The position numbers were made by a program, and so were the translations under genes. A stretch of 17,812 bases of DNA from positions 6,440 to 24,251 of the forward strand of contig JAXINV010000064.1 of assembly GCA_034190465.1 (NCBI GenBank). Direction: 5' to 3'. Numbering within the stretch: the stretch's first letter is position 1; each line of letters opens with the position of its first letter. Shown here piece by piece: positions 2 through 4,756 of the stretch. Origin of the DNA: Candidatus Asbonarchaeum danakilense (GTDB lineage Archaea; Nanohalarchaeota; Nanosalinia; Nanosalinales; Nanoanaerosalinaceae). The notes under the pieces are model-generated. The model was not told the origin of the DNA. It saw only the letters and a program-made list of their open reading frames with translations, and ran no database searches.

Positions 2-137
2 CGCCCGGGGCAGGATTTGAACCTGCGAGGGCTCGCGCCCACCGGTTGTCTTGCAATAGATGGTCCACGGTCGTTCCCGCTTGGGGTAGCCGCTTGGCTC
101 AAGACCGGCGCGATGGACCAGACTCCGCCACCCGGGC
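2..137 (-). tRNA. tRNA-Ser (anticodon UGA) with a 50-nt intron at canonical position 37/38
   Basis: Minus strand: acceptor GCCCGGG/CCCGGGC with G73 discriminator (pos 2); anticodon stem CCGGT/ACCGG with loop CT-TGA-G^A; long variable arm; T-arm GCAGG-TTCAAAT-CCTGC. No encoded CCA. Confidence 0.95.
48..97 (-). other. tRNA intron (50 nt) with a strict bulge-helix-bulge splice motif
   Basis: CTTG pairs with CAAG (4-bp helix), with 3-nt bulges AG^C and AC^A, flanked by the anticodon stem and a CAA/TTG helix. Confidence 0.92.
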
Positions 138-242
138 ATACTGCTTGTGGGTTCCGGGTGCGCGGCTCTGAAAACTCCGTACGGAGTTTTCTTCGTTCGA
201 GCGAAATCCCGTAGGGATTTCATCGAGCTCCGCCACCCGGGC
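123..242. repeat. 15-bp direct repeat of the tRNA 5' end (CTCCGCCACCCGGGC)
   Basis: Identical at 123-137 and 228-242; a partial third copy GCCACCCGTGC at 320-330. Confidence 0.9.
154..242. repeat. Palindromic three-way-junction element, unit 1
   Basis: Closing stem CCGGGTG-GCGG-CTC / GAG-CCGC-CACCCGG encloses the perfect palindrome GAAAACTCCGTACGGAGTTTTC (170-191) and the hairpin GAAATCCC-GTA-GGGATTTC (203-221). Confidence 0.85.
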
Positions 243-253
243 GGTATTTGTGT

Positions 254-346
254 GATGCAGGTGGCTCCGTCGCAACCTGATGGTTGCTCACGGGTGAACC
301 GCAAGGGTTCACCGTGTCAGCCACCCGTGCATCGGGCTGTACAGCC
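254..346. repeat. Palindromic three-way-junction element, unit 2, plus a short flanking palindrome
   Basis: GATGCA-GGTGGCT (254-266) pairs with AGCCACC-cg-TGCATC (319-333). It encloses GCAACC-TGAT-GGTTGC (272-287) and GGTGAACC-GCAAG-GGTTCACC (293-313). GGCTGTACAGCC palindrome at 335-346. Confidence 0.8.
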
Positions 347-369: not shown

Positions 370-377
370 TTTTATAA
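370..377. promoter_or_regulatory. Archaeal TATA box, possibly bidirectional (lipoprotein gene and tRNA precursor)
   Basis: TTTTATAA is the only strong TATA-like run between the divergent tRNA and lipoprotein genes. Confidence 0.55.
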
Positions 378-3316: not shown

Positions 3317-4756
3317 TTAGCCCATGTTCTGCATGAAGTTCCTGAGGGAGGGATGCATCTCCTCCATGTGTTTCTTGACGACCTCCTCGTAGAACTGGAA
3401 GGAGATCATCACAACAAGCAGGATACCCGTCCCGGTACCGAACGAATTGGTGAAGTTGGCGACCGCGGCAACCAGCCCGATGAACGCTCCGCCGAGCACC
3501 GCCAGCGCGGGGATGTACCTGTTCAGAATCTTGACGATGACGCGCTTGTCCTTCCTGAAGCCCGGCACCTTCATCCCGATATCCATGATCTGGTCAGCGA
3601 CCGCGGTCGGGTCCTGGTTCGACGTCTTCATCCAGAACAGCGAGAAGATCGCCGACGCGATGACGTAGAACAGTGTGTAGGTCAGCGCCTGGAGCAGCAT
3701 CGTCGGCGGGATCTGGAGCTGCATCCCGGCGATCGACTGCCAGAGCAGCGTCGGAAGGTTCGACGGAGCGGTGAAGTAGTAGATCAATGTGTTCGCGGCC
3801 GGGGCGCTGTTCGGCGAGTACTGGCCGACCAGGTAGAACGCCTCCTCCATCCATGGCAGGTTGAGTGACAGCTCAATGCCGCGTCGAGCCATCACTGAGC
3901 TCCACAGCCTGAAGTTGGAGGCGATCGCGGACACGAAGATGACAGGGATGACGTTGGTGTACAGGAACTTGAGCGGCCACTTCCGGCCGAACCCGCGGAC
4001 GTTGCCGAAGGTGAGGGGGATCTCCACCCGCATCGACTGGGCGTAAACCCCCACCAGGAACACGACGACGGTGAAGAACAGTCCTGTGATCGTTGCCGGG
4101 GCAAAATGACCGGTCATGAACTGGAGCAGCGCACCTGCCGGGGCGCCTCCGGCTTCAGGACTGAAGAAGAGGACGCCGCCACGTGTGAACGGTGACATAA
4201 GACGGATCATGATCGTCTTCGAGACCCCTCCGAGGATAAACAGGGAGACGCCGGAGTGGAAGCCCCATTTGGACACGATCTCGTCCATGAGGATGATGAA
4301 CCATGCGCCGATCGTCAGCTGCGCGACGACCAGCGGGAACAACGAGGCGCTTGCCGGTTTGACGGCCCCCATGGCAACGAAGGCGAGTGCTTCGAACAGG
4401 CCGAAGGCGTAGGCAAGCAGTTTCTGCGTGCTCTGGAACTTCTGCTTGCCGGGCCCGGAGTTCAGGTCCCAGGGGATGATTTCCGCCCCGACCAGCAGCT
4501 GGAGGATGATCGAGGAGGATACGATAGGACCGATGCCCAGTGTGACCAGCGTGCCGATGCTGGCGCCCAGAATGGTTGAGAACGTCTTGAACTGCTGGAG
4601 CTGCGCAGAAGAAGCCCCGATAACGTAGATCTCGCTCATGACGAAGTAGAGAACGAGGATGAGCCCGGTCCATGTCAGCTTCTCTCTGAAGCCGACGTTA
4701 CGGTTCGGCTTCCTGATCGACGGCAGGAACTGTGCCAGTGTGAGTAGTAGTGACAT
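3317..4756 (-). CDS. secY: Preprotein translocase subunit SecY (Sec61alpha)
   Basis: LGIGPIVSSSIILQLL, SGVSLFI, PLKFLYTNVIP, GTGILL motifs; about 10 TM helices; follows uL15. Confidence 0.98.
   Translation of the reverse strand: MSLLLTLAQFLPSIRKPNRNVGFREKLTWTGLILVLYFVMSEIYVIGASSAQLQQFKTFSTILGASIGTLVTLGIGPIVSSSIILQLLVGAEIIPWDLNSGPGKQKFQSTQKLLAYAFGLFEALAFVAMGAVKPASASLFPLVVAQLTIGAWFIILMDEIVSKWGFHSGVSLFILGGVSKTIMIRLMSPFTRGGVLFFSPEAGGAPAGALLQFMTGHFAPATITGLFFTVVVFLVGVYAQSMRVEIPLTFGNVRGFGRKWPLKFLYTNVIPVIFVSAIASNFRLWSSVMARRGIELSLNLPWMEEAFYLVGQYSPNSAPAANTLIYYFTAPSNLPTLLWQSIAGMQLQIPPTMLLQALTYTLFYVIASAIFSLFWMKTSNQDPTAVADQIMDIGMKVPGFRKDKRVIVKILNRYIPALAVLGGAFIGLVAAVANFTNSFGTGTGILLVVMISFQFYEEVVKKHMEEMHPSLRNFMQNMG

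Follow-up and report, generated by a model that had tools for sequence, protein, structure and literature searches.

The tRNA-linked repeats (TLRs) of Escherichia coli are short non-coding sequences that occur in one to five copies per locus within tRNA transcripts, copy the end of the neighbouring RNA and mostly lack any known role; in those sections of PMC8144298 that describe them, the copied segment comprises 18-19 bp of the 3' end and lies downstream. Rickettsia palindromic elements (RPEs), as outlined in PMC10969869, are bacterial gene-less palindromes of about 150 bp that occur in a host-dependent prokaryote with a small genome, where they sit in frame in conserved proteins and encode a recurring peptide. 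Haloquadratum walsbyi, a hypersaline archaeon, harbours PATEs and other short mobile repeats which, in the part of PMC3119063 devoted to them, are palindromic, non-autonomous and mutually nested, with PATEs tied to the ends of IS200/IS605 elements and targeting other elements. Partial tRNA duplications also arise at att sites, where insertion restores the tRNA, strands a fragment and may be repeated to give stacked insertions, the cargo measuring kilobases and often including an integrase (passages on att sites in PMC3119063 and PMC3293823). In Thermoproteales, related short sequences have been found as transposed introns in different tRNA genes and positions, being kept where a bulge-helix-bulge forms; the summary of this work in a 2026 preprint (10.64898/2026.10.13.758758) describes only introns as moving. 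How archaeal tRNA introns arrive is an open question: the same preprint, in the portion concerned with routes of arrival, put a number of them to the test in Asgard archaea, and none proved general.

Here we describe hairpin units that carry a copy of the 5' end ("head") of a tRNA and lie upstream of tRNA genes in Nanohaloarchaeota. Literature searches, largely of open-access papers, turned up no account of such upstream tRNA-head units. We propose, with a probability of roughly two in three, that the units arose by stacked insertion of a palindromic element of Nanohaloarchaeota which is non-autonomous and gene-less and brings a new tRNA head with it, and whose leader RNase P would remove. The units are a feature of the whole lineage that works like a mirror-image TLR and like an RPE, yet lacks defining features of each.

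The tRNA-Ser(TGA) locus

The window, i.e. the whole stretch of 17,812 nucleotides analysed here, corresponds to G000:C17:6440-24251, where G000 denotes the window's own genome (assembly size 1.2 Mb, 61% GC). A ribosomal protein operon, read from translations, makes up its bulk, and the same DNA is also present in salt-lake sequencing runs. A tRNA-Ser(TGA) gene, which ARAGORN misses in the window unless introns are allowed, lies at the left end, preceded on its own strand by two units (window coordinates):

2-137, minus strand: working tRNA-Ser(TGA) gene (ARAGORN on the genome; Rfam RF00005, 43.1 bits, E 5e-8)
137-123, minus strand: head of the working tRNA, part of the tRNA-Ser(TGA) gene and the sequence copied by the units
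48-97, minus strand: 50-nt intron of tRNA-Ser(TGA) at the canonical 37/38 site (bulge-helix-bulge by eye; strain-variable)
138-153, minus strand: spacer from the unit 1 anti-head to the working tRNA; RNase P would be expected to cut at 138/137
154-168, minus strand: unit 1 anti-head, an imperfect reverse complement of the tRNA head whose partner can be the copy or the working head
170-191, minus strand: hairpin B of unit 1, 22 nt long and perfectly palindromic (GAAAA...TTTTC type)
197-227, minus strand: unit 1 hairpin A, which together with B forms the mobile core
228-242, minus strand: unit 1 head copy, exact over 15 nt; absent from the same-genus genome G001
243-253, minus strand: inter-unit spacer
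254-266, minus strand: unit 2 anti-head and 3' strand of the closing stem
272-287, minus strand: unit 2 hairpin B'
290-316, minus strand: unit 2 hairpin A'
317-330, minus strand: unit 2 head copy, decayed (12/14); the closing stem reaches 333
335-346, minus strand: 12-nt palindrome near the putative transcription start
370-377, minus strand: TATA-like box TTATAAAA (consensus match only)

Each unit thus runs in the order head copy, hairpin A, hairpin B, anti-head and spacer, with a closing stem in which the head copy pairs with an imperfect complement of itself. The initial annotation had drawn both units as a closing stem around two hairpins, and folding agrees (-49.3 and -45 kcal/mol, z -6.31 and -5.89); none of 200 shuffles folded as well, and the plus strand is about equally stable. 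Its statements that the opening 15 nt of unit 1 (242-154) are identical to the start of the tRNA, and that the three heads are spaced 105 and 88 nt apart, were likewise confirmed. The head of unit 2 at 330 is a near copy as claimed (12/14 nt); likened there to an acceptor stem plus the start of a D stem, the head copy instead pairs as a single helix with the anti-head. The shared architecture also stands, whereas the hairpin sequences, taken to be different, prove to be diverged members of one module family with 59 of 97 aligned columns identical.

A misassembly was rejected, since two separately assembled contigs span the leader: a Logan contig from run X1 covers positions 12-1100 with no difference in 138-346, and a contig from run X2 covers 12-1087 with one substitution in that interval (X1 and X2 belong to the same study, and either may be the source of the window). 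The intron of tRNA-Ser(TGA), by contrast, differs at about ten places. An Rfam scan returned no family at gathering score in the window, and within 1-420 only the tRNA was significant.

Three further observations concern this locus. At positions 61-67 the tRNA-Ser intron contains 7 nt that are exactly complementary to the D loop of the same tRNA (from position 18); this stretch is retained in G001 despite variation elsewhere in the intron, and could be a guide or another anti-target. [quoted passage not shown] Divergent from the tRNA, and perhaps using a common TATA box, a 217-aa open reading frame at 407-1060 encodes a lipoprotein-like signal and has no Pfam match.

Structure and covariation of the units

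Among ten Ser units from six genomes, 8 of 23 pairs changed on both sides. Only 0-6 of 500 shuffles scored as high, a figure that overstates the case and is not a probability, since the sequences are kin. One covarying pair of the closing stem tracks the tRNA's own G/A difference at position 7. A covariance model built from these ten units (R1), the check that had been advised, matched 12 of the 70 genomes of the phylum under strict filters, many of the genomes being incomplete. Thirteen matches fell outside the training set: twelve are head units before Ser, Cys, Pro or Asp tRNAs or before a tRNA head truncated where its contig stops, and the thirteenth lies behind a tRNA on the other strand. 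A second model, R2, contained only four pairs owing to a poorly registered alignment and served as a sequence profile.

A stable, covarying three-way junction that is likely to be transcribed from the tRNA promoter could also be an array of ncRNAs, tRNA mimics as had been offered at the outset or decoys, each independent and freed from the co-transcript to serve a function of its own; decoys might also be directed against tRNA-targeting nucleases or integrases. Such an array is improbable in our judgement. The units have no T arm, anticodon arm or CCA end and hence no tRNA-like processing site between them, their number and module content vary between species and apparently between strains, they have no Rfam match, and neither ARAGORN nor the tRNA model detects them. 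In addition, none of the five published ncRNAs of a cultured nanohaloarchaeon begins, by eye, with a tRNA head (Table S3 in the supplement of PMC10266531).

The position at which the copy ends was determined for 53 units from 195 tRNA rows. It falls at 10-18 in 47 units, 22 of which end at 14-15, and at 22-24 in the other six; these longer copies (Val, Ala and Lys) bear a different cassette that is common to them. This second cassette is near-identical across the three isotypes and resembles, by eye, a decayed anticodon arm plus T arm (G000:C23:14724-14842, C36:6166-6284 and C15:31904; G001 L048, L051, L052 and L067). In 29 of the 53 units, pairing between the unit body and the head of its own tRNA surpasses that with 95% of other heads, which speaks for the insertion of an element; the remaining 24 lie outside the top 5%, which counts against it. 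Isotype-specific units of Leu, Cys and Ser are shared by three families, and the bulge in their closing stem is conserved, a pattern also compatible with old, selected leaders. The complete genome G014 contains Cys and Leu units.

Head and tail copies across tRNA genes and relatives

The tRNA set of G000 comprised 52 ARAGORN calls, of which 41 were kept on the basis of a T-arm motif and a length of at most 345 nt; one of the 11 dropped calls is probably a real tRNA. Head copies matching at 13-14 of 14 positions were present within 260 nt upstream of 8 of the 40 evaluable tRNA genes (nine less one that overlaps a scaffold gap; two Pro(CGG) loci are possibly one locus assembled twice). Downstream, tail copies matching at 18-20 of 20 positions were found at 12 of 38 genes (14 counted, two of them across gaps). 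On the opposite strand, the parts of a tail unit follow one another as those of a head unit do, namely stranded copy, hairpins, complement and working end. Chance controls of 4200 tests yielded no heads and two tails; for heads, 14 tRNA heads were compared with 300 random 260-nt windows, the best match being 12/14 and none reaching 13 or more. All four relatives surveyed carry head copies of at least 12/14, at 9/30, 2/35, 5/20 and 2/30 tRNA loci, with loci drawn from 30/32, 30/38, 18/18 and 30/34 tRNA-model matches. Perfect GAA...TTC hairpins in G000 are likewise concentrated in or within 300 nt of tRNA genes (17 of 26; 2.4% of the genome).

A pattern scan of GTDB genomes gave 29 matches, including six archaeal ones with hairpins, and the named archaeal records with the same motif belong to Asbonarchaeaceae (Nanohalarchaeota). 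The 23 matches labelled bacterial have no tRNA and were judged to be chance, and those on viral contigs (2 and 6) and metagenome contigs (0 and 4) were also attributed to chance. Positions 138-346 had no match in plasmid and phage collections.

Several loci met during this survey deserve separate mention. A lone tRNA-Ser 3' end followed by a tail unit (G000:C10:22900-22991), 6.5 kb from tRNA-Ser(CGA), resembles an att remnant with its own unit. Two odd tRNA-like sequences with a common upstream motif lie in foreign-looking regions (G000:C11:31556-31706 and C22:6569-6718) and are possibly mobile-element RNAs. About 19 intron-poor tRNA genes form dense clusters with no head or tail units on G027:C1 (L079, L082, L088 and L095), perhaps reflecting a viral sequence or a binning error. 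Three or four related short palindromes stand in tandem in an intergenic region with no tRNA nearby (G000:C16:18800-18990).

Direction and age of the proposed insertions

A TATA-like motif (loose pattern) precedes the first head copy by 20-55 nt at 27 of 40 unit loci but is found at the same distance before the working tRNA at none of the 40; for unit-free tRNAs the figure is 67 of 146. In the window, TTATAAAA stands about 45 nt upstream of the first head copy and more than 230 nt upstream of the working tRNA, and judging from this position the leader is likely co-transcribed with tRNA-Ser. A sigma-70 promoter scan was set aside as inapplicable to archaea. Where copy and working head differ in the acceptor stem, the copy pairs worse in all nine cases. 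The first head copy occupies the place where a tRNA free of insertions would begin. From promoter distance and decayed copies together we infer that the promoter kept the old head, while a new one was supplied downstream. The second explanation put forward in the initial annotation, in which the units are remnants of a tRNA-targeting palindromic element and this element duplicates the 5' end of the tRNA, is supported, and can be extended to an element that is mobile, affects many tRNA genes and reaches beyond tRNAs.

In outline, the element would enter a tRNA gene at about position 14-16, the start of the D loop, and place a fresh head behind itself. The old head would be left stranded beside the promoter and the working tRNA displaced downstream, and in the window a second round of insertion would have added unit 1. 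The entire stretch would be transcribed as a 5' leader of about 200 nt, in which the anti-head may close on the stranded head during synthesis and so keep it off the 3' strand of the acceptor; removal of the leader by RNase P would render the insertion nearly neutral. Units could then spread among isoacceptor genes, with hairpin modules swapped by recombination or conversion, and the enzyme involved would act in trans or be a host repair function.

In another reading, the first head would be the true 5' exon and the 105 nt a non-canonical intron, with the splicing endonuclease cutting a bulge-helix-bulge between the head copies. A symmetric motif of this kind can be drawn for the Ser(TGA) head (CCGG as core at 3-6, with helices of 4 and 3 bp), true D-loop introns between direct repeats occur in the lineage, and the equilibrium model puts the copy on the acceptor. 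The motif, however, is possible in only 15 of the 41 nearest units, all of them Ser, Val or Lys, and competes with the 11-bp anti-head helix; with the poorer acceptor pairing of the copies at every difference, we regard splicing as extremely unlikely.

The units differ between species and strains. At Ser(TGA), G001 has only a homologue of unit 2, identical in 65 of 85 columns, so that unit 2 is probably the older of the two and unit 1 came later; at Ser(CGA), two units are present in G001 and none in G000. A contig from run X4 links position 165 to 345 across 56 other letters while matching the promoter and the unit 1 spacer, which suggests a shorter allele of the leader. Another X2 contig contains the unit 1 core with six substitutions and one gap in 73 nt, and its flanks match, by eye, 15 and 30 nt of an array in G017, a genome of family f4, which points to module exchange between arrays. 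Exact tandem unit repeats are found as a 58-nt triple at Leu-CAG in G001 and a 61-nt double in G038.

Predicted behaviour of the leader RNA

A candidate RNase P RNA on contig C18 scored 81.9 bits against a cut-off of 84. For the leader with its tRNA, the normal fold (-163.4 kcal/mol) and a swapped fold (-163.3 kcal/mol), in which the copy occupies the acceptor strand and the anti-head the working head, are almost equal in computed energy. In a transcript ending at 137, before the working head exists, anti-head 1 is predicted to pair with the copy at 0.91. Once the RNA is full-length, the swapped fold dominates the ensemble (0.77), with the copy on the acceptor strand at 0.83-0.86, and shuffling the anti-head raises this pairing only to 0.94; an equilibrium swap prevails in 25 of 28 intron-less loci. 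The folding model omits tRNA tertiary contacts, which favour the normal fold. Given the equilibrium swap and the small effect of shuffling, protection by the anti-head would be kinetic at best.

The two folds could instead represent a selected switch tuning tRNA output, in which the anti-head would sit either on the copy, letting the tRNA fold and RNase P cut at 138/137, or on the working head, trapping the tRNA. Besides the isoenergetic states, the covarying structure and the recurrence of units across three families are in keeping with such a switch, as is the fit of the anti-head where heads differ, which is better for the downstream head in 10 of 17 cases and for the upstream copy in five, with two ties. 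Near-equal energies, on the other hand, follow from any direct repeat with one complement. The leaders are patchy in their presence (R1 in 12/70 genomes under the strict filters, many genomes being incomplete), orthologous tRNAs differ between species of the same genus, and the identical type of core occurs in protein genes and introns. On balance we consider a selected switch unlikely and return to insertion of a palindromic element as the preferred reading.

The hairpin core in protein genes, gene ends and trailers

The core of the unit, 55-60 nt long, is not confined to leaders. A profile of the core alone matched 26 times, at 24 sites in five genomes: 14 tRNA leaders (mostly training sequences), three tRNA-Arg introns, one trailer, three sites within proteins, two intergenic sites and one probable chance match. 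The A+B core of unit 1 itself recurs in G000 in a tRNA-Cys leader and a tRNA-Arg(CCG) intron. At the protein sites the insertion adds 18-19 residues in frame to PheT (G015), Nre (G017) and ArgS (G001); the G000 orthologues do not have these residues, and none of the sites shows a clear target duplication. At two protein-gene ends of G000 the layout is tail, anti-tail, hairpin and tail copy, and at one of them the anti-tail tracks synonymous differences. These sites, and the D-loop insertions considered further below, are as follows:

L255:862-2625, L256:1396-3060, L257:1367-2701: in-frame insertions in ArgS, PheT and Nre, with a common DRAN peptide
G000:C11:28500-28690, C11:9000-9200: repeated 3' ends of protein genes, parvulin-like and thermosome-like (by eye, from the translation), in two or three copies that vary at synonymous sites, with anti-tails and hairpins between them
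L267 (G017:C31, near 4500-4680), G000:C1:99425-99605: tRNAs with D-loop insertions, His and Gly(TCC), missed or misnamed by ARAGORN

Strong hairpins may also promote slippage or fold-back template switching, and local events of this type could have made both the head duplicate and its inverted copy with no mobile element involved. The exact tandem repeats of whole units (G001 Leu-CAG and G038), the anti-tails at a G000 protein-gene end that track synonymous changes in their own tails, and the lack of an enzyme in our searches fit this account. Local events cannot, however, place homologous cores in introns of tRNA-Arg, in the leaders of Ser, Cys, Pro and Asp tRNAs and in three protein genes that are not related to one another, and the coexistence of filled and empty sites had already weakened the case. 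We consequently give a purely local origin little chance; local copying probably explains only the later amplification of units.

Search for a mobilising enzyme

GIY-YIG nucleases, Y1 transposases and reverse transcriptases (RT) were sought in 70 genomes and tyrosine recombinases in G000. None of the enzymes sought follows the units across these genomes, many of which are incomplete. Y1 transposases were found in 4/70 genomes and RT in 7/70, and neither in G000, G001 or eight family-f4 genomes (69-87% complete). The GIY-YIG matches in G000 and G001 are of UvrC size, and the single tyrosine recombinase match in G000 lies on another contig. Across 31 enzyme loci, a GAA...TTC hairpin occurs near two and the array layout at none. 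G055 has GAAA...TTTC hairpins near an RT gene and near a Y1 transposase gene (L235:2613-2657, L229:1357). Selfish repeats persist here in genomes that measure about 1 Mb and show no transposase. The units also account for scaffold gaps and missed tRNA calls beside tRNA genes.

Relation to described repeats and mobile elements

Integrative elements duplicate, as a rule, the 3' part of a tRNA. In contrast to att sites, the units duplicate the 5' head, their cargo consists of hairpins of 40-120 nt, and no open reading frame fits within 88-105 nt. The tail units of G000, found behind 12/38 tRNAs, share the layout of TLRs. Head units are set apart from TLRs in that they copy positions 1-15 rather than the 3' end, lie upstream rather than downstream, include an anti-head and have a core that also occurs in introns and proteins.

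A palindromic core that sits in frame in conserved genes and encodes a recurring peptide is a property shared with RPEs, from which it differs by its shorter core (55-60 nt against about 150 bp); it has no Rfam match, and rebuilding of a tRNA end is not among the RPE properties given in the relevant text of PMC10969869. PATEs are tied to IS200/IS605, whereas no Y1 transposase was found in the unit-rich genomes, and the account of PATEs in PMC3119063 makes no mention of tRNA-head duplication. [quoted passage not shown] Nor do the units represent tRNA-like structures, being three-way junctions without a T loop or CCA. We consider it fairly probable that the units, akin to the known short palindromic repeats, are footprints of a gene-less palindromic element which rebuilds the end of its target.

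A possible link to tRNA introns

The preprint summary for Thermoproteales has introns alone moving, whereas the modules described here are also leaders, trailers and protein insertions, with direct repeats at two D-loop introns in addition. By blastn, unit cores matched 2 of 59 introns and nine trailers, so most introns have no detectable relation to the cores by that test. An internal-repeat search recovered two D-loop insertions that lie between direct repeats starting at tRNA position 14, approximately where most head copies end, and that contain two hairpins each. In tRNA-His of G017 the repeat is 13 nt with a 60-nt period, a full bulge-helix-bulge with helices of 5 and 7 bp can form, and 73 nt are left after removal; in tRNA-Gly(TCC) of G000 the repeat is 9 nt with a 56-nt period and there is one outer helix only. 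A third match (Thr) looks like chance. The two cases are suggestive of a link between the element and the origin of introns, and are no proof of one.

We tentatively raise a wider scheme, which we think is possible but doubtful, in which a family of gene-less hairpins would insert guided by its own complement of the target (anti-head or anti-tail) and would always repair the break. At a tRNA end this would produce a leader or trailer; in a protein gene the insert would be in frame or replace the last codons; and inside a tRNA a segment of the D loop or anticodon region would be duplicated, a bulge-helix-bulge would arise immediately and the insert would be an intron from the outset. The tRNA-His insert of G017 is the best case for it. 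If true, such guidance would amount to a route of targeted insertion not described before, and archaeal tRNA intron gain would have a concrete source. The same hairpin modules serve as leaders, trailers, introns and protein insertions, with a common boundary at tRNA position 14, in one lineage that has cultured members, and this combination makes the link to introns testable.

The tRNA-Ser(CGA) introns of relatives (L010-L016, L032, L036 and L038) carry boxes of the CTGA and ATGA types beside a complement of the start of the 3' exon, and are presumably similar to intron-encoded C/D guides.
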